The translations under genes and the position numbers were made by a program. Positions 9,140-64,000 of a stretch of DNA of 64,000 nucleotides are shown here, piece by piece (position 1 is the first letter of the stretch; every line of letters starts with the position of its first letter). The DNA comes from Bacillota bacterium (GTDB lineage Bacteria; Bacillota; Sulfobacillia; JAIMAT01). Below the pieces are notes generated by a model. That model made no database searches. It saw only the letters and a program-made list of their open reading frames with translations, and was not told where the DNA came from. Location of the stretch: assembly GCA_029960955.1 (NCBI GenBank), contig JASBVS010000003.1, positions 6,194-70,193 on the forward strand, written 5' to 3'.

Positions 9140-10081
9140 TCAGCGCAGGCCACCTCCCGCAGGGGCGGGCGATCCCTCCGCCCGCTCGGCCTGGAGCAGG
9201 GCGGCGCGGGCGCCCCGGGCCCGCTCGAGGAGCCCGGCCAGCTCGCTCGCCCGGCCTTCGCGCAGCGCCGCCTCGAGCGCTCCCAGCGCCAGGCGGAAAC
9301 GCTCCAGCGCCGCCAGGAGCTCCTCGCGGTTGGCCAGGCACATGCCGCTCCCCACCTCGGGGCTGATGGCCACCACGCGGGTGCTGTCCCGGAAGCCGCC
9401 CGCCACCGCCTGGCGGATCCCCTCCGGCTCCTCTTCCGCGGCCACCGCGGCCAGCGCCGCCGCCGCCAGGTAGGGAAGGTGGCTCGTCCGCGCCACCCAG
9501 CGGTCGTGCAGCGCGGCGGCGACGCGGCGCGGCCGGGCGCCCAGCGCCTCCGCCAGGGCGGCGACGCGCGCGAAGGCCTCCTCCCCCTCCCCGGCGGGGA
9601 GGCCACCGCTCCCGCCCGGGCTCGCGCTTCCGCCTCCGCCCCCGGGCGGCGGGCAGAGGAACCAGACGGCGCCGCGGAAGAGGCCCGGGTCGGCCCAGCG
9701 GCCGCCCGTCCGCTCGCTGCCCGCCATGGGATGACCGGGGACGTACCGGCCGGGAGGAAGGAGCGGCGACAGCGCCTCGGCCACGCGCGCCTTGGCCCCG
9801 GCCACGTCGGTGACGACGGCGTCCCCCGCCAGCCAGGGCGCCGCCCGAGCGGCCAGCTCCGGCAGCGCGCCCGGCGGCGCGGCCAGGACGACCAGGGAGG
9901 CCTCCCCCAGCCACTCGCCCAGCCGCTCGTGGACGACGTCCACCGCCCCGGTCTCGGCCGCCACGCGCCGCGCCTCCGGGTCGGGGTCGTAGCCGAGCCG
10001 CCGGAGGCGGCCGCCCAGGCCGAGGCCGACGGAGCCACCGATCAGCCCCAGGCCCAGGATCGCCGCCGCCCGCTCCCGCAT
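9140..10081 (-). CDS. tyrA: Prephenate/arogenate dehydrogenase.
   Basis: Rossmann N-terminus [15 protein letters not shown], then [11 protein letters not shown]...[11 protein letters not shown]. Confidence 0.8.
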
Positions 10082-53636: not shown

Positions 53637-55369
<1,733 letters not shown>

Positions 55370-55373
<4 letters not shown>

Positions 55374-56026
55374 GCTTCCCGTCCCCCCCGTCCCGGGCCG
55401 GCGGCCTCCCCGGCCGCCGCCCAAGCGATCTCCGACCAGCTCGGCCGCCGCGCCTCGAAGGCGGCGATGGCCGCCTCCCGCGCGAGCGTCACGTCGATGT
55501 CGTCCACTCCCTCCAGCAACCGCCGCCTCCTCTCCGGATCGACGCGGAAGGCGGCGACGAAGCCGGAGGCGTCGCGGACCTCCTCCCGTTCCAGGTCGAC
55601 CGTCAGCTGGTAGCCGGGCTGGTCACCGGTCCGGCGGAAGAGCTCCTCCACCGCCTCGGGTTCCAGCCGGACGGGCAGGAGCCCGTTCTGCAGGCAGTTG
55701 GCCTCGAAGATGTCGGCGAAGCTGGGCGCCACGATCGCCCGGAAGCCGTACTGCTGGAGCGCCCAGGGCGCGTGTTCGCGGCTCGAGCCGCAGCCGAAGT
55801 TCTCCCGCGCCAGCAGGATGGTGGCTCCCCGGTAGCGCGGCTGGTTGAGGACGAAGTCCGGGTCGGGCGAACCGTCAGGACGGTAGCGCCAGTCGTGGAA
55901 GAGGAAGGGCCCGTACCCCGTCCGCTCGATCCGCTTGAGGAACTGCTTGGGAATGATGGCGTCGGTGTCCACGTCGGGCCGGTCGAGCGGCGCCACCAGC
56001 CCGGTATGGCGGACGAAGCGCTCCAT
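55370..56026 (-). CDS. leuD: 3-isopropylmalate dehydratase small subunit.
   Basis: [39 protein letters not shown]...[21 protein letters not shown]. The ATG at 56026 overlaps the leuC stop (ATGA). Confidence 0.9.
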
Positions 56027-57489
56027 CAGGCCCCCACCCCCTCGGCCGCCGGTTCCGCCCGGCCGGCCGCCTCGCCGTCGAACCAGCGGCGCACGTCGAC
56101 GAAGTGGCCGGCGACGGCGGCGGCCGCCGCCATGGCCGGGCTGACCAGATGGGTCCGGCCGCCGCGTCCCTGCCGGCCCTCGAAGTTCCGGTTGGAGGTG
56201 GAGGCGCAGCGCTCGCCGGGCCGCAGGACGTCGGGATTCATGCCCAGGCAGAGCGAGCAGCCCGAGGCGCGCCACTCGAAACCCGCCTCCAGGAAGAGGC
56301 GGTCAAGCCCCTCGGCCTCCGCCTGGCGGCGGACGCTCTCGGAGCCCGGCACCACCATGGCGCGGACCTCCGGGGCGACGCGCCTCCCGCGCACGACCGC
56401 CGCCGCGGCGCGCAGGTCTTCCAGGCGCGCGTTGGTGCAGGAGCCGATGAAGACCCGGTCGACGCGGATCGACTCCATGGGCGTCCCCGGCTCGAGCCCC
56501 ATGTAGGCGAGCGCCCGTTCCGCCGCCCCCCGCTCCACCGGATCCTCCATCGAGCGGGGGTCGGGCACCGCCGCGGTCACCGCCACCGTCATGCCCGGGT
56601 GCGTCCCCCAGGTCACCTGCGGCGCCACCTCGGAGGCGTCGAGCACGAGCCGCCGGTCGTAGGAGGCGCCGGGGTCGCTGCGGAGCGCCCGCCAGGCGCG
56701 GAGCGCCTCCTCCCAGGCGTCGCCCCGGGGGGCGAAGCGCCTTCCTCGCAGGTAGGCGAAGGTGGTCTCGTCCGGCGCCACCAGCCCGACGCGGGCGCCC
56801 GCCTCGATGGCCATGTTGCAGAGCGTCATCCGCTCCTCCATGCTCATCCGCTCGACCGCCGGCCCGGTGAACTCGACGGCGTAGCCCTGGCCGACCCGCG
56901 GCCCGTGGCGGCCGATGAAGGCGAGGATCAGGTCCTTGACCGTGACGCCGGGGGCGAGCCGCCCCTCGAAGCGGACCTCCATCGTCCTGGGCCGGCGCTG
57001 CCAGAGGGTCTGGGTGGCCAGGACGTGCTCCACCTCGCTGGTGCCGATGCCGAAGGCCAGCGCCCCGAAGGCGCCGTGCGTGGCCGTGTGGCTGTCGCCG
57101 CAGACGATCAGCTTGCCGGGCTGGGTCAGGCCGAGCTCGGGTCCGATCACGTGGACGATGCCGCGCTCCGGGCTCCGCAACCCGTAGAGGGGCACGCCGA
57201 ACTCCCGGCAGTTGGCCTCCAGCGCCTCCACCTGCCGGCGCGAGACCGGGTCGACGATCCGCTCCGCGGTGAGCAGGCCCGGCTCGGTGGGCACGTTGTG
57301 GTCGACGGTGGCCACCGTCAGGTCGGGCCGGCGCACGCGGCGGCCGGCCAGCCGCAACCCTTCGAAGGCCTGGGGCGAGGTGACTTCGTGGACCAGGTGC
57401 AGGTCGACGTAGAGGAGCGCCTGGCCGCCGGGCTCCTCGTGGACCACGTGGCTCCGCCACAGCTTCTCGAACAACGTCTGCGCTGGCAT
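56026..57489 (-). CDS. leuC: 3-isopropylmalate dehydratase large subunit.
   Basis: [16 protein letters not shown]...[27 protein letters not shown]...[14 protein letters not shown]...[14 protein letters not shown] at 57489 after GGAGAGGAGG. Confidence 0.9.
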
Positions 57490-57742
57490 CCGCCAGCCTC
57501 CTCTCCGCGCCGCGCGAGCTCGCAAGGGGGACGAGCGCCATGGGCAGGGCGATGACGCGGAGATCGTACTAGGTATACGGGCCCGGGTGGGCGACTCCTC
57601 CCGGCGGCGCGGGCGCCCGTCGCCGCGCCGGCGGGATCGGGCAAAGTTCGCCTGTTCACAAGTGCGAACGATCTAGGCGGCGAAAAGCTGAGCTTTCGGG
57701 CTTCTACCCGCCGTTTGCCGGCCGATCCGGCCGCTGAACCGG

Positions 57743-57772
57743 TTGACTTTCGTTGCGCGCCTCGGGTAGCAT
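57743..57772 (+). promoter_or_regulatory. Candidate sigma-A promoter (-35 TTGACT, 18-nt spacer, -10 TAGCAT) driving the T-box leader and the ilvH-ilvC-leuA-leuB-ilvB operon.
   Basis: TTGACT at 57743-57748 and TAGCAT at 57767-57772, just upstream of the predicted T-box Stem I. Confidence 0.4.
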
Positions 57773-57859
57773 CGCTGCCAACAACCGGCCGTCCTGGAGG
57801 TCGGGCCGCTCCTCTTACAACCCGTACGAGCGCAAGGCGATGAGGGACAGCGCCCGCGA

Positions 57860-58236
57860 AGGCGCCGGAGGCAGAGAGCCGGGGTAGCTGCGAACCGGTT
57901 CCGGCCGTCGCAGGTTCTCCGTCCCGAGCTGCGTGCCCGAACCATCGCCGCCTCGGGCGGTCTCCGGTGCGCCTCCGGACCTGCCGAGGGGCGAAAGTAG
58001 GGTGCGCCGGCCCGGACTCTACGGGCCGTTAGCCGAAGCGAGGCGGCAGCCTCGGGCCTTCCCCGTCTTCGCGACGAGGCGGAGGCGTGCGCCGGACGCA
58101 CGTCGCCGCCGTCGCCGCGGCCGGGAGAAGGCACGCTCCGGCGCAGCCGCAAAGCAGGGTGGTACCGCGAGGCAGGAAGGAGGACCTCGCCCCTGGAGGG
58201 GCGGGGTCTTTTTTTATCCAGCGGCTGCGTCCGGCG
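57860..58236 (+). ncRNA. T-box riboswitch leader (tRNA-sensing antiterminator) with an intrinsic terminator, upstream of ilvH.
   Basis: Conserved T-box sequence AAAGCAGGGTGGTACCGCGAGG at 58171-58192 (consensus AANNNGGGTGGNACCGCG). F-box-like CCGTTA at 58046-58051. AGAGAG at 57893-57898 in the Stem I region. Terminator hairpin CGCCCC-tgga-GGGGCGGGG followed by TCTTTTTTTAT (58204-58238). The T-box 3' half can pair with the terminator's 5' arm, forming an antiterminator. Confidence 0.7.
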
Positions 58237-58320
58237 CTCCTTGCGCGGGGCGGAGGGGCAGGTCGGAAGGGTGGCCCGGCGGCCGGGCGGCGGCCGTCCG
58301 GATGCGAAGGGGGTGAGGCC

Positions 58321-58845
58321 ATGGAGTTCGCGCTGGCGGTGAGGGTCGAGAACGAGCCCGGGGTTCTGGCCAGGGTGGCGTCGCTGGTGAGCCGCCGCGG
58401 CTTCAACATCGAGAGCCTGGCGGTCGGTCCCACGGAGGACGCCTCGGTGTCGCGGATCACGCTGGTCTGCAAGGGGGACGAGCGCGACCGGGAGCGGCTC
58501 CGCCGCCAGCTCGAGAAGCTGGTCGAGGTGCTGGAGGCCTGGCACGTGCCGGGGGAGAGCTCGGTGCGGCGCGAGCTGGCGCTGGTGCGGGTGCGAGCCG
58601 ATCCCGGCCGCAGGGCCGAGCTTCTGCAGGTGGCCGGCATCTTCCGATCGCGGGTGGTGCATGTCGACCGGAGCGCGCTGGTGCTGGAGACGACGGGCGA
58701 CCCGGAGAAGATCCAGGCCTGGCTCGAGGTGCTGAGAGACTTCGGGATCGAGGAAGTGGCCCGCACCGGGATCGTGGCGCTCGACCGCGAGCGACGCGCG
58801 GTCCCGCAGGCGGAGTTCGAGAGCCGCGAGGAGGCGGCCTTCTGA
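58321..58845 (+). CDS. ilvH: Acetolactate synthase small (regulatory) subunit.
   Basis: [49 protein letters not shown] (ACT domain) plus a C-terminal AHAS-small domain. ATG at 58321; the ORF-track start at 58087 lies inside the T-box leader. Confidence 0.85.
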
Positions 58846-58879
58846 GCCGTCCCGATCGACCGGATGGAGGGATGGAAGG

Positions 58880-59935
58880 ATGGGCAGGATCTGGTATGAG
58901 GCGGACGCCGACCCGCGGCTCCTGCAGGGCAAGAGCGTGGCGGTGATCGGCTACGGCAGCCAGGGCCACGCGCAGGCGCAGAACCTGCGCGACCACGGCG
59001 TCGACGTGATCGTGGGCATCCGGCCCGGGGCGAGCGCCCGAAGGGCGGAGGCGGACGGCTTCCCCGTCTTCGACGTGGCGGAGGCCACCCGGCGCGCCGA
59101 CATCGTCCACATCCTGGTCAACGACGAGGTGCAGCGCGACCTCTACGAGAGCGCCATCCGGCCCCACCTGCGCCCGGGCATGGCGCTCGGCTTCTCCCAC
59201 GGTTTCAACATCCACTACGGCCAGATCGTGCCGCCGCCGGGCGTCGACGTCTTCCTGGTGGCGCCCAAGGCGCCCGGGCACGAGTTCCGGCGGCTGGTCC
59301 GCGAGGGACAGGGCGTGCCGGCCCTCCTCGCCGTCGCGCAGGACGCCAGCGGGCAGGCCTGGGATCTCGCCCTGGCCTTCGCCTGGGGCATCGGCTGCGC
59401 CCGCGCGGGCGTCATCGAGACCACCTTCCGCGAGGAGACGGAGTCCGACCTCTTCGGCGAGCAGGCGGTCCTCTGCGGCGGTGTCAGCGAGCTGATCAAG
59501 GCCGGCTTCGAGACGCTGGTCGAGGCCGGCTACCAGCCCGAGATCGCCTACTTCGAGTGCCTCAACGAGATGAAGCTGATCGTGGACCTCATCTACCAGG
59601 GCGGCCTCGCCTGGATGCGCTACTCGGTCTCGGACACGGCCGAGTACGGCGACATGACGCGCGGACCGCGGGTGATCGACGGGCACGTGCGCGAGAACAT
59701 GCGCCGGCTCCTGGCCGAGATCCAGGACGGCAGCTTCGCGCGCGAGTGGATCCTGGAGAACCGGGCCGGGCGGCCGGTCTACCGGGCGCGCCAGCGGCAG
59801 GAGCGGGAGCACCCCATCGAGGCGGTGGGTCGCAAGCTCCGCGCCATGATGCCGTGGACGGGGAACCGGCTTCCTCCGGACATGGAGCAGGCGGCCGAGA
59901 AGGCGCCCTCGGGCGCCGGCGCGGCCACCCGTTGA
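58880..59935 (+). CDS. ilvC: Ketol-acid reductoisomerase.
   Basis: [50 protein letters not shown]...[16 protein letters not shown]...[11 protein letters not shown]. Confidence 0.95.
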
Positions 59936-59958
59936 GAGCCTGGGAAGGGGGAGGCGTC

Positions 59959-61152
59959 ATGCGCAGGATCTACATCTTCGACACCACGCTGCGAGACGGC
60001 GAGCAGTCGCCGGGCGTCAACCTGCTGCCCGAGGAGAAGCTGGAGATCGCGCACCAGCTGGAGCGGCTGGACGTCGACGTGATCGAGGCCGGCTTCCCCG
60101 CCACCTCCGAGGGCGACTTCCTGGCGGTCTCGCGCATCGCCCAGGAAGTGCGCGAGCCGGTGATCGCGGCGCTGGCCCGCACCCACCCCTCCGACATCGA
60201 GGCGGCGGCGCGCGCGCTGGAGAAGGCGGCGCGGCCCCGCATCCACACCTTCACCTCGTTCTCGCGCATCCACATCGAGCGCATGCTGCGCAAGAGCGAG
60301 GAAGAGGTCCTGGAGATGAGCGTCGCCGCCGTCCGCCAGGCCCGGCGCTACGTCGACGACGTCGAGTTCAGCGGGCAGGACGCGGGCCGCGCCGACCCGG
60401 AGTACATGGTACGCGTCATCGAGGCGGTGATCGAGGCGGGCGCCACGGTGATCAACATCCCCGACACGGTCGGCTGGACGCTTCCGGAGGAGTTCGGGGC
60501 GCTGATCGCCACCCTCCGCCGGCGCGTCCGCGGCATCGAGCGGGTCACCCTCTCCGTCCACTGCCACAACGACCTCGGCCTGGCGACGGCCAACACGCTG
60601 GCCGGCCTCCAGGCGGGCGCCGACCAGGCGGAGGTGGCGGTCAACGGCATCGGCGAGCGGGCCGGGAACACCTCGCTGGAAGAGGTGGTGATGGCCATCG
60701 CCGCCCGCGGCGACCGGCTGGGGATGTACACCGGCGTGGAGACGCGCGAGATCATGGCGGCCAGCCAGCTGGTCCGGCGCCTGACGGGCATGCCGGTCCA
60801 GCCCAACAAGGCGATCGTCGGCGCCAACGCCTTCGCCCACGAGTCGGGCATCCACCAGGACGGCGTGCTGAAGGAGCGCCGCACCTACGAGATCCTGGAC
60901 CCCGAGGCGGTCGGGCTGGACAGCTCCAACCTGGTCCTGGGCAAGCACTCGGGCCGGCACGCCTTCGCCGCCCGGCTGGAGGCGCTCGGCTACCGGCTGG
61001 AGCGGGAGCGGCTGGAGGCGGCCTTCCGCCGCTTCAAGGCCCTGACCGACCAGACCAAGGAGGTGCGCGACGGCGACCTGGTGGCGCTGGTGGAGGCGAG
61101 CCTGCGCGAGGAAGCCGAAGCCGTGGCCGACCACGGAGGCGACGCGGCATGA
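59959..61152 (+). CDS. leuA: 2-isopropylmalate synthase, short form (397 aa), lacking the C-terminal LeuA-dimer/leucine-binding regulatory domain.
   Basis: [22 protein letters not shown]...[45 protein letters not shown]...[12 protein letters not shown] at 59959. The stop TGA at 61150-61152 overlaps the leuB ATG, leaving no room for the regulatory domain. Confidence 0.85.
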
Positions 61153-62354
61153 GCGAGGCGTGGAGGCTTCTCCTCCTGCCCGGCGACGGCATCGGGCCGG
61201 AGGTGAGCGAGGCGACCGAGGCGGTGCTGGAGGTCGCGGCCGCCTGGTTGGAGAGGCGGAGCGGGCGGGGCGTGGCGGTCCGGCGCGGCTGGATCGGCGG
61301 CGCGGCCATCGACCGCTGGGGGGTACCGCTTCCCGAGGAGACGCTGGAGGCGGCGCGCGCCTCGGACGCGGTCCTCCTGGCGGCGGTGGGCGGGCCGCGC
61401 TGGGAGCACCTGCCCGGCCACCTGCGGCCCGAGGCGGGGCTGCTGGCGCTGCGCCGGGAGCTGGGCGTCTACGCGAACCTGCGCCCGGCCACGGTCTGGC
61501 CGGGGCTGGAGGGCCGCTCGCCCCTCCGCCCGGAGGTGGTGGCCGGCACGGACTGCCTCGTCGTCCGCGAGCTGACGGGCGGCCTCTACTACGGCCAGCC
61601 GCGCGGTCGCGGCGTCGGCTCGGGCGGCGAGATCCGCGCCGTCGACACCATGGAGTACAGCGCCGACGAGATCCGCCGCGTGGCGCACGTCGCCTTCCGC
61701 GCCGCCCGGCGGCGCCGCCGGCTTGTGACCAGCGTCGACAAGGCCAACGTGCTGGAGAACTCGCGCCTCTGGCGGGAGGTCGTCTCCAACGTGGCGCGCG
61801 ACTACCCGGACGTCCGCCTCGAACACCAGCTGGTGGACAGCGCGGCCATGCTCCTGGTCAGCCAGCCGGCCCGCTTCGACGTGCTCCTGACGGAGAACCT
61901 CTTCGGCGACATCCTCAGCGACCTGGCCGGCGGCGTGGTGGGAAGCCTCGGCCTCCTGCCCTCGGCCAGCCTGGGCGACGGCGGGCCGGGCCTCTACGAG
62001 CCCGTCCACGGTTCGGCGCCCGACATCGCCGGCCAGGATCGCGCCAACCCGCTGGGCATGATCCTCTCGCTGGCGATGCTTTTCGAGAGCAGTTTCGGCG
62101 CGGCCTGGCTGGCCGCCGAGCTGCGCGAGGCGGTGGCCGCCGTGCTGGCCGAAGGCTGGCGGACGGCCGACATCGCCGCGCCCGGCGCGCGGCTGGCGGG
62201 CACGCGCGAGATGGGCCGGCGGGTGGCCCGGGAGCTGGAGAGGCGAGCCCGCGCCGGCGAGGCCGGCCCCGACGCCCGCGCCGGCCGGCGCTCCGGCGCC
62301 GAGTCCGAGCCGGTCGATTCGGCGGCCCGCCCGCACATGGCCGCGGGCGCCTGA
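61149..62354 (+). CDS. leuB: 3-isopropylmalate dehydrogenase.
   Basis: [11 protein letters not shown]...[11 protein letters not shown]...NLRP...SVDKANVLE...[31 protein letters not shown]. Confidence 0.9.
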
Positions 62355-62369
62355 GAGGGAGGGATCGCG

Positions 62370-64000
62370 ATGCGCGCCAACGCAGCCGCCCAGCTCCTCC
62401 GCTGCCTGGAGGAGGAGGGCGTCGAGGTGATCTTCGGCTACCCCGGCGGCGCGGTCCTTCCGATTTACGACGCGCTGGTCGACGCGCCGATCCGCCACGT
62501 CCTGGTCCGCCACGAGCAGGGCGCGGTCCACGCCGCCGACGGCTACGCGCGCGCCTCCGGTCGCGTGGGCGTCTGCCTGGCCACCTCGGGCCCCGGGGCG
62601 ACCAACCTGGTGACCGGCCTGGCCACCGCCTACATGGACTCGGTGCCGGTGGTCGCCATCACCGGCCAGGTCGCGCGCCCGCTGGTCGGCTCCGACGCCT
62701 TCCAGGAAGCGGACGTGGTGGGCATCACCCGCGCCACCACCAAGCACAACTACGCGGTGACGCGCCCCGCGGAGCTGCCCCGCGTCGTCCACGAAGCCTT
62801 CCACCTGGCGCGGAGCGGCCGGCCCGGCCCCGTGCTGATCGACCTGCCCAAGGACGTCACCCTGGCCGACGGCCCCTTCCCCCATCCCCAGGCGCCCCCC
62901 TCGCGGCGCGGTTACCGCCCGCGGCTGGAGCCCGATCCGGCCGAGGTCGAGGCGGCTGCGGCCGCGCTGGCGGGGGCGCAGAGGCCGGTGGTGATGGTGG
63001 GCGGCGGCATCATCCACGGCGGGGCGGCGGGGGAGCTGCGGCGCTTCCTGGAGACGACGGGCTTCCCGGCGGTCAGCACGCTGATGGGGCTGGGCGCCCT
63101 GCCGGCCGACGACCCCCGCCACCTGGGGCTGGTGGGCATGCACGGCACCTACGCGGCCAACCGGGCCGTCAGCCAGGCCGACCTGGTGCTGGGGCTGGGT
63201 CTCCGCTTCGACGACCGCGTGACGGGCAACGCCTCGCGCTTCGCGCCGCGCGCGCGGATCGTCCACGTGGACATCGACCCCTCGGAGATCGGCAAGAACG
63301 TCCGCGCCGACGTGGCGGTCCTGGGGGATCTGATCCGCGTCCTGCCGCGCCTGCTGGAACGGCTTCTGGCCGTCTGGGCCGCCTCGGGCCGCCCGGACCC
63401 GGCGCCCTGGTGGGAGGCGCTCCGCTCCTGGCAGGCGCACCAGGGCTGGGACCTGCACACCCCCATGGAGCTGGGCGGGGAGGAAGGGCGACCGCTCCGT
63501 CCGCAGGGCGTGATCCAGCAGGTGGCGCGCGTGGCCGGCCCCGAGGCGATCGTGGCCACCGACGTGGGCCAGCACCAGATGTGGACGGCGCTCCTCTTCC
63601 CCTTCCGGCGACCGCGCCAGCTGATCACGTCCGGGGGTCTGGGCACCATGGGCTACGGGCTGCCGGCGGCCATCGGCGCCCAGATGGCCGAGCCGGAGAG
63701 GCCGGTCTGGCTGGTGACCGGCGACGGCAGCTTCCAGATGAACGTCCAGGAGATGGCCACCGCCGTCAACTACGGGCTCCCGCTCCGCGTGGTCATCGTC
63801 GACAACCGGAGCCTGGGCATGGTCCGCCAGTGGCAGGAGCTCTTCCACCAGGCGCGCTACTCGGCGGTCATGCTGGAGCCGCTCCCCGACTGGGTCCGCC
63901 TGGCCGAAGCCTACGGATGGCAAGGCTGGAAGGTGGAGCGGGCCGCCGAGCTGGAGCCCGCGCTGGCGGCGCTGGCCGAGGCCAGGGGCCCCGCGCTGGT
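62370..64000 (+). CDS. ilvB: Acetolactate synthase large (catalytic) subunit; the 3' end lies beyond the window.
   Basis: MRANAAAQLLRCLEEEGVEVIFGYPGGAVLPIYDAL...HEQGAVHAADGYARASGRVGVCLATSGPGATNLVTGLATAYMDSVPVVAITGQV...GTMGYGLPAAIGA...ITGDGSFQMN. ATG at 62370 after GAGAGGGAGGGA. It is not in the ORF track because there is no in-window stop. Confidence 0.85.
   Translation, partial: MRANAAAQLLRCLEEEGVEVIFGYPGGAVLPIYDALVDAPIRHVLVRHEQGAVHAADGYARASGRVGVCLATSGPGATNLVTGLATAYMDSVPVVAITGQVARPLVGSDAFQEADVVGITRATTKHNYAVTRPAELPRVVHEAFHLARSGRPGPVLIDLPKDVTLADGPFPHPQAPPSRRGYRPRLEPDPAEVEAAAAALAGAQRPVVMVGGGIIHGGAAGELRRFLETTGFPAVSTLMGLGALPADDPRHLGLVGMHGTYAANRAVSQADLVLGLGLRFDDRVTGNASRFAPRARIVHVDIDPSEIGKNVRADVAVLGDLIRVLPRLLERLLAVWAASGRPDPAPWWEALRSWQAHQGWDLHTPMELGGEEGRPLRPQGVIQQVARVAGPEAIVATDVGQHQMWTALLFPFRRPRQLITSGGLGTMGYGLPAAIGAQMAEPERPVWLVTGDGSFQMNVQEMATAVNYGLPLRVVIVDNRSLGMVRQWQELFHQARYSAVMLEPLPDWVRLAEAYGWQGWKVERAAELEPALAALAEARGPAL

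Follow-up and report, generated by a model that had tools for sequence, protein, structure and literature searches.

The 64,000-nucleotide (nt) window analyzed here (contig JASBVS010000003.1 of the Bacillota bacterium assembly GCA_029960955.1; all positions refer to this whole stretch) has a GC content of approximately 73% and contains two divergent operons for branched-chain amino acid (BCAA) synthesis. The leuC-ilvN intergenic region that lies between them, 57490-58320 (831 nt), is the subject of this study. We read its plus strand as carrying a leucine-specific T-box attenuator in front of ilvN, and its minus strand as carrying a strongly constrained leader and a putative weak promoter in front of leuC. 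Matches to NCBIfam and Pfam families define the flanking operons:

53637-57489, minus strand: divergent operon of leuC (57489-56026), leuD (approximately 56029-55370) and ilvD (55373-53637)
58321-64000, plus strand: T-box-controlled operon of ilvN (58321-58845), ilvC (58880-59935), a short leuA (59959-61152), leuB (61149-62354) and ilvB (62370 to the end of the window)

A first-pass annotation of the region had the gene layout right, and every string that it quoted is present; leuC starts at 57489 on the minus strand and ilvN at 58321 on the plus strand. Its coordinates are accurate to 0-2 nt on the leuC side but roughly 20 nt too high on the plus side. The T-box sequence AAAGCAGGGTGGTACCGCGAGG, given as 58171-58192, lies at 58151-58172; the terminator with its U7 tract, given as 58204-58238, lies at 58183-58215; and GUUCUCCGU, given as 57937-57945, lies at 57914-57922, with its CUC triplet at 57917-57919.

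Only two further genomes, L081 (GCA_029961055.1) and L098 (GCA_023511835.1), share the divergent layout and form a clade with the window. The order ilvN-ilvC-leuA-leuB-ilvB is found again in L081 (10001-15798), and leuC-leuD-ilvD in both L081 and L098. Relative to the window, IlvN and LeuC of L081 are 90% and 91% identical, and LeuC of L098 is 92% identical. As next relatives we used Caldinitratiruptor microaerophilus (L082), Symbiobacterium thermophilum (L084) and a JGI contig (L085), in which ilvN-ilvC-leuA and the genes that follow form one operon behind a leader of approximately 530-680 nt. Motifs were compared among all six genomes, and base pairs were counted in the window, L081 and L098 only; unless six genomes are named, invariance refers to these three. 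The neutral baseline was taken from 4-fold degenerate sites, at which the window and L081 have an identity of 0.66-0.76 and three-way invariance in leuC is 0.484.

A promoter scan, a terminator scan and a canonical T-box fold yielded the following plus-strand features:

57743-57772, plus strand: sigma-A-type promoter from the promoter scan, with the -35 element TTGACT (57743-57748), an 18-nt spacer and the -10 element TAGCAT (57767-57772)
57773-57804, plus strand: 5' end of the leader ahead of Stem I, with the 19-mer CGCTGCCAACAACCGGCCG (57773-57791) overlapping hairpin P0 (57785-57792 with 57797-57804)
57836-57930, plus strand: Stem I, with coordinates from the canonical fold drawn by hand on the window
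57837-57843, plus strand: kink-turn (K-turn) GCGAUGA of Stem I, with its closing stem, 57836-57838 with 57928-57930
57844-57848 with 57921-57925, plus strand: Stem I helix GGGAC/GUCCC
57865-57870 with 57899-57904, plus strand: Stem I helix CCGGAG/UUCCGG
57871-57878, plus strand: Stem I AG bulge GCAGAGAG, with AGAGAG at 57873-57878
57879-57882 with 57895-57898, plus strand: Stem I helix CCGG/CCGG
57883-57894, plus strand: Stem I distal loop GGUAGCUGCGAA, which includes GCUGCGAA
57917-57919, plus strand: specifier codon CUC (leucine), followed by C57920 and then by the GUCCC strand of the helix above the K-turn
57931-58007, plus strand: Stem II, GCGUGCCC/GGGUGCGC (57931-57938 with 58000-58007), with GAA...AGUA and a variable GC-rich insert
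58008-58014 with 58022-58028, plus strand: Stem IIA hairpin, 95% paired in the three genomes
58026-58031, plus strand: F-box CCGUUA
58032-58150, plus strand: Stem III region, swollen by GC-rich insertions and approximately 80 nt longer than in L081
58151-58194, plus strand: T-box sequence and antiterminator, AAAGCAGGGTGGTACCGCGAGG (AAAGCAGGGUGGUACCGCGAGG; 58151-58172), with the core GGGUGGUACCGCG at 58157-58169
58156-58194, plus strand: antiterminator helix A1, AGGG/CCCU (58156-58159 with 58191-58194), the bulge UGGUACC, and helix A2, GCGAGG/CCUCGC (58167-58172 with 58185-58190)
58183-58215, plus strand: intrinsic terminator from the terminator scan, GACCUCGCCCC/GGGGCGGGGUC (58183-58193 with 58198-58208), with U7 at 58209-58215

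Judged by its sequence, this element is a real leucine-specific T-box transcription attenuator of the ordinary kind. The first-pass annotation had proposed a T-box leader driven by TTGACT-N18-TAGCAT, and the motifs of six genomes, the orthologous leaders and the pair counts all bear this out. The six leaders present their motifs in a single canonical order: GCGAUGA, AGAGA(G), a distal loop of the GCUGNGAA type, CUC plus one base, a helix with GAGC, then GAA...AGUA, CCGUUA, GGGUGGUACC(G/A)CG and the terminator. The K-turn motif GCGAUGA, which faces GA-GC at 57926-57929 in the window, is the same in all six. The F-box CCGUUA is kept in L081, L082, L084 and L085 and reads CCGAUA in L098; the terminator is kept in L081 and L098, with tracts of U7-U9. 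Within the clade, the AG bulge and the platform bases of the distal loop are invariant.

The specifier codon had been guessed to be CUC, correctly: the triplet is invariant at the canonical position in six of six genomes, and Rfam places it in the codon columns in L085 (96.3 bits) and L082. CUC is also the experimentally defined leucine specifier in the ilv-leu T-box of Bacillus subtilis (Marta et al. 1996, as cited in PMC2494555). Bacillales and Clostridia commonly place BCAA synthesis under T-box control, and T-boxes are known to be abundant in S. thermophilum (PMC2494555).

To count pairs, we drew the canonical fold by hand on the window and then scored it on the three-genome alignment; the hand-drawn fold was used for this purpose as MAFFT with RNAalifold on three distant leaders did not recover the canonical distal stem. 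The fold is 94.1% paired, compared to 32-48% after displacement of the 3' partners by 1-3 columns, and it contains four pairs with changes on both sides, a number matched by only 1-2 of 500 shuffles. The Stem I helices are 89-100% paired and include a compensatory change from C-G to G-C in CCGGAG/UUCCGG. Stem II is 100% paired, with four pairs that vary through wobble changes only, and antiterminator helices A1 and A2 are invariant and 100% paired.

The promoter TTGACT-N18-TAGCAT is the sole sigma70-like site in 57300-58500, both strands considered, and shuffles lead us to expect 0.0. Its hexamers and spacing are identical in L081, and L098 has TTGACT-N18-TAGGAT. We predict that the transcript starts near 57779, and the leader runs for approximately 435 nt from promoter to U7 terminator. 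Directly after the -10 element, the 19-mer CGCTGCCAACAACCGGCCG is invariant at 19 of 19 positions (P ~1e-6 against the 4-fold-site baseline). Hairpin P0 is 92% paired with one two-sided change; its sequence differs in each of the three genomes, yet it pairs in all of them. Both CGCTGCCAACAACCGGCCG and P0 lie outside the standard T-box model.

Several points weigh against the T-box assignment. The curated Rfam model (RF00230) finds no match at its gathering threshold in the window, L081, L082 or L084, and in the three clade genomes it matches neither at gathering nor over its full length. A permissive scan of the window yielded nothing beyond two fragments, one of 18.2 bits at 58152-58194 (model positions 183-216) and one of 13.4 bits at 57867-57902 (model positions 39-75), the latter covering the AG bulge and distal loop. 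In the specifier loop, the S-turn motifs AGUA/GAA are missing from the window, which has AGCG and AGGUU instead, and they are degenerate throughout the clade. The codon is followed by a C, where a purine is usual. The structure used for the pair counts was derived from the window, itself one of just three closely related sequences. Finally, the window contains no tRNA gene from which a tRNA-Leu(GAG) could be read.

We attribute the poor Rfam scores to the long, GC-rich insertions at the Stem II tip and in Stem III, the lack of an S-turn, and the pyrimidine or G after the codon; the failure on Stem I is mainly due to the departures in the S-turn and in the base after the codon. The S-turn and a purine after the codon are frequent but not absolute features of the T-box family. 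Among the leaders compared, the base after CUC is A in L084 and L085, C in L082, L081 and the window, and G in L098. The insertions are confined to the Stem II tip and Stem III, both known as variable regions. L081, which lacks the Stem III insert, gives a partial match to model positions 146-216 (Stem III and T-box sequence; 31.3 bits, E 2e-5) and a second fragment for Stem I (model 27-85). L098 matches over model positions 159-216 (22.3 bits, E 0.005). The orthologous leader of L085 exceeds the gathering threshold over the full length of the model (96.3 bits, threshold 93), and the Caldinitratiruptor leader aligns end to end in a local search (53.1 bits, E 9e-11).

The element could in principle be a terminator next to a chance T-box-like 14-mer, or a decayed relic, as the sub-gathering window fragments and the degenerate S-turn would suggest. 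We regard this as extremely improbable. All modules are in order and conserved above neutral expectation in three genomes, which also show compensatory changes; invariance extends to the promoter, specifier, F-box, T-box bulge and terminator; the insertions occur only where T-boxes vary; and a chain of homology leads to the leaders of L085 and L082, which Rfam aligns in full. The first-pass annotation had named failure of the covariance model to place Stem I as a refutation, and formally the model does fail, but the orthologous leaders and pair counts contradict the chance 14-mer that was to follow from such a failure.

The 5' strand of the terminator overlaps the 3' strand of the antiterminator. 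Because the two structures share this strand and the terminator core is more stable (-23.6 kcal/mol vs -12.4 kcal/mol for the antiterminator), termination would be the default OFF state, as in canonical T-boxes. In the mechanism that we propose, the sigma-A-type promoter drives the T-box leader, and Stem I would offer CUC to the anticodon of tRNA-Leu(GAG), while the AG bulge and distal loop would receive the tRNA elbow. In the antiterminator, the UGGU bulge appears suited to a tRNA ending in ACCA and would capture this end when uncharged. Such tRNA binding, which we infer from the anatomy of the leader, would stabilize the weak antiterminator against the stronger terminator, allowing read-through into ilvN-ilvC-leuA-leuB-ilvB only when charged tRNA-Leu is scarce.

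The minus strand of the region has no second T-box and no match to any other family in Rfam scans, in keeping with the first-pass statement that the leuC side lacks a T-box consensus. Transcription of leuCD-ilvD is thus not under T-box control. Upstream of leuC we distinguish the following features:

57490-57565, minus strand: clade-invariant leuC 5' leader, with 62/76 columns invariant in the three genomes (baseline 0.484; P 2e-9)
57505-57496, minus strand: extended Shine-Dalgarno (SD) sequence GGAGAGGAGG
57563-57554 with 57511-57502, minus strand: helix P1 of 10 base pairs from the RNAalifold consensus, UCUCCGCGUC with GGCGCGGAGA (consensus GRCGCGGAGA)
57536-57518, minus strand: hairpin P2 from the RNAalifold consensus, GCUCGU-CCCCCUU-GCGAGC, enclosed by P1
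57566-57599, minus strand: putative weak leuC promoter, with AGGAGTC (57599-57593), a 13-nt gap and CGTATACCT (57579-57571)
57643-57699, both strands or strand unspecified: cluster of TTCGCC/GGCGAA half-sites around the invariant ACTTGTGAA, midway between the core promoters

The constrained segment 57490-57565 was not flagged in the first-pass annotation. Its conservation is uneven: 44/48 columns are invariant in 57490-57537 (P 2e-10 vs neutral) and 12/13 in 57553-57565 (P 1e-3), and the 15-nt linker between them (57538-57552) is drifting, with 6/15 invariant and no excess over neutral (P 0.8). P1 and P2 are 100% paired, and the loop of P2 and the inter-helix linker are invariant as well, giving the leader conserved positions that are unpaired. 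P1 covers the first half of the extended SD and ends abutting the GGAGG whose spacing from the start codon is optimal. The leuC-sense strand folds at -41.4 kcal/mol, compared to -36.6 kcal/mol for the antisense strand. This lower energy and the G-U pairs in the model mildly favor an RNA on the leuC strand. The fold z-score reaches -2.9 in L081.

The first-pass annotation had instead proposed a structured leader of about 250 nt, built from a hairpin, CGAAAAGCTGAGCTTTCG (located at 57681-57698), an inverted element, GTTCACAAGTGCGAAC (57654-57669), and an AT-rich palindromic island, CGTACTAGGTATACG (57565-57579). The strings lie within 2 nt of the positions given, but the structure is not upheld: the three are 76%, 83% and 75% paired, respectively, and every change among the three genomes breaks a pair while none compensates. 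Consistent with this, the interval 57590-57720 folds no better than shuffled sequence on either strand (z-scores of -1.5 on the minus and -1.3 on the plus strand). The left arm of the island is variable, and the island is better read as the -10 region of the leuC promoter. The 10-bp palindrome GCGAGCTCGC occurs at the chance rate, with 1.2 copies expected per window.

The island, CGTATACCTAGTACG, is the only A/T-containing one between leuC and approximately 57640, and AGGAGTC and the CCGT(A)ATACCT core are invariant in the three genomes, unlike the left arm of the palindrome. The interval 57490-57563 does not contain a single TA step, which rules out a -10 element on the leuC side of the CGTATACCT island. 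We infer that the island may be the -10 element of a weak or activator-dependent leuC promoter. With the island as -10, the 5' end of the leuC mRNA would fall within a few nt of P1. Other site types considered at the CGTATACCT and ACTTGTGAA blocks, by search or by eye, were rejected because their spacing or half-sites do not fit: a second T-box, promoters of the sigma54, extracytoplasmic function (ECF)/SigW-like, SigB, SigD and SigH types, and cre, CRP and Rex sites. All that is present of the last is a single Rex-like half-site, TTGTGAA.

Farther upstream, the half-site cluster at 57643-57699 is a candidate shared operator. Its three TTCGC half-sites in 66 nt represent the top density in the 64-kb window (8/12,787 sampled windows), and its sequence is unique to the clade. 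The outer pair GTTCGCC...GGCGAAA and ACTTGTGAA are invariant; the inner arms vary and degrade in L081. Overall, 33/57 columns are invariant, without significant excess over neutral (P 0.1). The distance from the cluster to the -35 element of the T-box promoter is constant; that to the leuC block is not, differing by 28 nt in L081. The neighboring stretches show no excess of conservation either, with 19/69 columns invariant in the GC-rich spacer 57600-57640 (P 1.0) and 9/43 in 57700-57742 (P 1.0). A GC-rich, imperfect hairpin with 12/13 pairs can be drawn at 57597-57637, between the promoter-like island and the cluster; the low conservation of this spacer and the 28 additional nt that it has in L081 suggest drifting DNA. 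Neither AGGAGTC-N13-CGTATAC nor GTTCGCC-N2-TTCACAAGT has a second copy in the window, and we therefore see no regulon signal for these two unique sequences.

From these observations we propose that leuCD-ilvD is most likely transcribed from the weak, non-consensus promoter at 57566-57599 into a 5' untranslated region (UTR) of approximately 75 nt. The 5' end of this UTR would pair with the purine tract making up the first half of the SD (P1), enclosing P2 with its CCCCCUU loop. In our model the UTR most likely modulates the stability of the mRNA and the efficiency of its translation, as would be expected of a 5'-terminal stem beside a strong ribosome-binding site (RBS). Amino acid control of the leuC side, if there is any, could come from a protein acting on the leader or on the half-site cluster. 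Taken as a whole, the arrangement of two back-to-back units, with a leucine T-box on the plus strand and a weak promoter with a conserved structured UTR on the minus strand, is one in which we have good confidence.

Certain observations count against this account of the leuC side. No sigma70-like promoter is detected on the minus strand, even at a lenient threshold, and the leuC start is predicted rather than mapped. P1 leaves the optimally spaced GGAGG unpaired, and the "sequestration" of the SD is thus only partial. P1 and P2 are invariant in the three genomes, resulting in zero covariation, which for this reason is uninformative either way. The fold z-score of the leader is only -0.8 in the window. 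The invariance is equally compatible with a DNA operator, and the stabilizing role is deduced from anatomy alone. Searches for the conserved blocks outside the clade, in metagenome contigs and by nhmmer in approximately 100 fetched loci, found no copy. The pattern ATCTCCGCG-N25-55-CGCGGAGAGGAGG hit 12 metagenome loci, all by chance, with none upstream of leuC and none accompanied by P2. A likeness of GGGCCCGTATACCT...GATCTCC to sequence upstream of leuC in L100 and L099, whose LeuC proteins are 75% identical, had been noticed by eye and is at most a weak lead, as neither MAFFT nor nhmmer at maximum sensitivity supports it. The leuC leaders of these two relatives are unstructured. We conclude that the leuC leader is strongly constrained and, coming from three near-identical sequences, amounts to a modest lead rather than a finding.

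Four other explanations for the leuC side can be weighed against a stabilizing UTR. The one that deserves most attention, although we consider it unlikely, is control at the DNA level, perhaps of both units: a transcription factor would bind the TTCGCC/GGCGAA cluster and/or the GCTCG-N9-CGAGC dyad in the leuC leader, and the conserved blocks would be operators rather than RNA. The density of half-sites, the invariance of the outer pair and ACTTGTGAA, and the position of the cluster midway between divergent promoters at a fixed distance from the T-box -35 element all fit this idea, as does a leuC promoter without a -35 element, which resembles activator-dependent promoters. B. subtilis joins T-box and protein regulators at its ilv-leu operon, and L099 has a divergent LysR-type regulator and a T-N11-A box beside leuCD. 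Set against these are the near-neutral overall conservation of the cluster, the degraded inner arms in L081, the lack of a second copy in the window, and the chance-level expectation for GCGAGCTCGC. The CodY-type site raised by the first-pass annotation finds no counterpart, since the CodY box AATTTTCWGAAAATT has no match at ≤3 mismatches anywhere in the window, and tblastn with the L099 LysR protein against the window and related loci gave no match. A distinctly less likely explanation is that the leader is a specific translational switch, either a new riboswitch or a protein-bound RNA operator, in which P1, possibly together with pairing between the CCCCCUU loop and GAGGAGG, opens or closes the RBS in response to a signal from the BCAA pathway. 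Whereas the 15-nt spacer drifts, both helices, the loop and the inter-helix linker do not vary; constraint thus acts on more than base pairing, as it does in RNAs that bind ligands or proteins. P1 overlaps with the extended SD, the P2 loop is complementary to the rest of it at 6/7 positions, and the SD-pairing LEU element upstream of actinobacterial leuA offers a conceptual precedent (PMC1262725). The absence of covariation, a weak thermodynamic signal, the lack of an Rfam match, the restriction to three closely related genomes and the unstructured leaders of the 75% relatives argue the other way, and approximately 55 structured nt would be small for an aptamer. In its most specific form, as an undescribed cis-regulatory RNA that gates leuCD-ilvD translation without involvement of the T-box, for instance in response to a pathway metabolite or with the aconitase-family LeuCD apo-enzyme regulating its own synthesis by binding the CCCCCUU hairpin in an aconitase/IRP-like manner, the idea is speculative and we think it improbable; if true, the split BCAA regulon would gain a second, RNA-based sensor.

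The remaining two explanations fare worse. Antisense or transcriptional interference from the T-box unit, or a terminated T-box leader acting in trans, might be imagined because the two units share one intergenic region, and the P2 loop CCCCCUU is complementary at 7/7 positions to the ribosome-binding tract of ilvN, AAGGGGG. With a C-rich loop and a G-rich RBS, however, composition alone leads one to expect a 7-nt match, and the antiterminator loop is not conserved. The first-pass annotation had raised an antisense effect of T-box read-through, but the units are transcribed apart: the candidate leuC core promoter lies 145-170 nt from the T-box promoter on the other strand, and no minus-strand promoter-like site is present inside the T-box leader. 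Since the transcripts diverge without overlap, an antisense effect is excluded, and interference in this broader sense is very improbable. Classical leader-peptide attenuation, as in proteobacterial leu operons or in the ilv-leu operon of Staphylococcus aureus (PMC5794164), has practically no probability. Nothing speaks for it beyond the presence of hairpins, and it is refuted by the minus strands of the window and L081, which contain no conserved short open reading frame (ORF) and no run of Leu, Ile or Val codons, and by the lack of any terminator-like site on the minus strand.

Comparison with known systems places the two leaders in different positions. The plus-strand element shares with known BCAA T-box attenuators (PMC2494555) the CUC specifier, K-turn, AG bulge, distal loop, Stem II GAA...AGUA, Stem IIA and F-box, as well as the GGGUGGUACCGCG bulge and two alternative structures, an antiterminator and a terminator with a U tract, of which only one can form at a time. 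It differs from them in its length (approximately 435 nt vs 219 Rfam model positions, owing to GC-rich insertions in Stem II and Stem III), its extra 5' hairpin, the missing S-turn, the C after the codon and its sub-gathering score. Its operon differs as well: it starts with ilvN, ends with ilvB and does not include leuCD. The T-boxes of S. thermophilum, Caldinitratiruptor and L085 are like that of the window in preceding ilvN-ilvC-leuA and in their motif order and CUC, and Caldinitratiruptor also has a C after the codon. Unlike the window leader, they keep the AGUA/GAA S-turn, and Rfam aligns them end to end (96 and 53 bits).

Firmicutes possess 5'-terminal stem-loops that stabilize mRNAs beside strong RBSs, such as the aprE and ermC leaders. 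The leuC leader resembles these in having a stable helix a few nt from its predicted 5' end that ends beside a long SD. It differs in that the start site here is only predicted, and because stabilizers normally need no invariant loops or linkers, this type does not explain the full conservation pattern. The actinobacterial LEU element (Seliverstov et al. 2005, PMC1262725) is likewise a compact leader of the leucine pathway, in which a base stem pairs a CUC-containing tract with the SD region, and it has no known ligand. It has features of its own, namely a leader ORF with a run of Leu codons, a pseudoknot, a position before leuA and a distribution in Actinobacteria. The leuC leader has no leader ORF, precedes leuC, contains one inner hairpin and shows no sequence similarity to the LEU element, which it resembles in design only; it is not a member.

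As a CUC leucine T-box before ilv-leu genes has been known since the 1990s, the plus-strand element adds no new biology. It does bear on annotation. The ilvN T-boxes of S. thermophilum (L084 9650-9960) and Caldinitratiruptor (L082 9609-9916) fall below the Rfam gathering threshold of 93 bits, and high-GC T-boxes are thus, it appears, systematically under-called at this value. The three clade genomes, S. thermophilum and Caldinitratiruptor all have functional-looking leucine T-boxes that score below gathering due to GC-rich insertions and non-canonical specifier loops, leaving regulons under-annotated in such lineages. With leuCD-ilvD separated from the T-box operon and LeuA lacking its leucine-binding domain, the T-box may be the sole leucine sensor for one half of the pathway, with the other half behind a constrained leader. 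If the leuC leader proves to be a regulatory RNA or an operator, it would illustrate the re-wiring of a pathway following the split of an operon.

The gene content of the two operons adds to this picture. Placing the gene for the small acetolactate synthase subunit (ilvN) first and that for the large subunit (ilvB) last is common to Symbiobacterium, Caldinitratiruptor and L085, and it differs from the usual ilvBNC order. LeuA of the window has only 397 amino acids (aa), with HMGL-like and HCS_D2 domains and without the C-terminal LeuA_dimer regulatory domain that binds leucine; the LeuA proteins of Caldinitratiruptor and Symbiobacterium (523-529 aa) do carry it. Leucine feedback inhibition of the window LeuA may accordingly be absent, and with a short LeuA that lacks the leucine-binding domain, the T-box may be the only leucine sensor of its operon.

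The operons of the relatives are unidirectional, and that of Caldinitratiruptor includes leuCD of a short type (L082 13223-15081, with a LeuC of the 427-aa type) together with ilvD. In the window clade, leuCD and ilvD are separate, divergent and without a T-box, and LeuCD is of the long bacterial type (LeuC 487 aa, TIGR00170), approximately 70-75% identical to LeuC from many phyla. The best matches in a contig scan with LeuC were approximately 70% identical and came from unrelated phyla. Because the LeuC type differs from that of Caldinitratiruptor, the divergent leuCD-ilvD unit was probably acquired, or replaced its predecessor, and is probably not a simple inversion of the ancestral operon.

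Two further loci attracted our attention during the comparison. Upstream of the L085 T-box, 9321-9650 contains a promoter-like TTGACA...TAAAAT, approximately 200 nt with the ykkC-reminiscent CTAGGGTTCCG, and the terminator-like GGGTCCGGGGCTTTTTT. The segment is a possible tandem riboswitch or small RNA; Rfam at gathering found no match in it, and the suspicion of a ykkC-type riboswitch was not confirmed. In L099 (211-1280), a Firmicutes metagenome-assembled genome with a LeuC 75% identical to that of the window, leuCD lies beside a divergent LysR-type gene, and the intergenic region contains an ATAG-N7-CTAT (T-N11-A) box and the direct repeat TCAAACAGACCG. This arrangement looks to be a different, protein-based solution for regulating a stand-alone leuCD.

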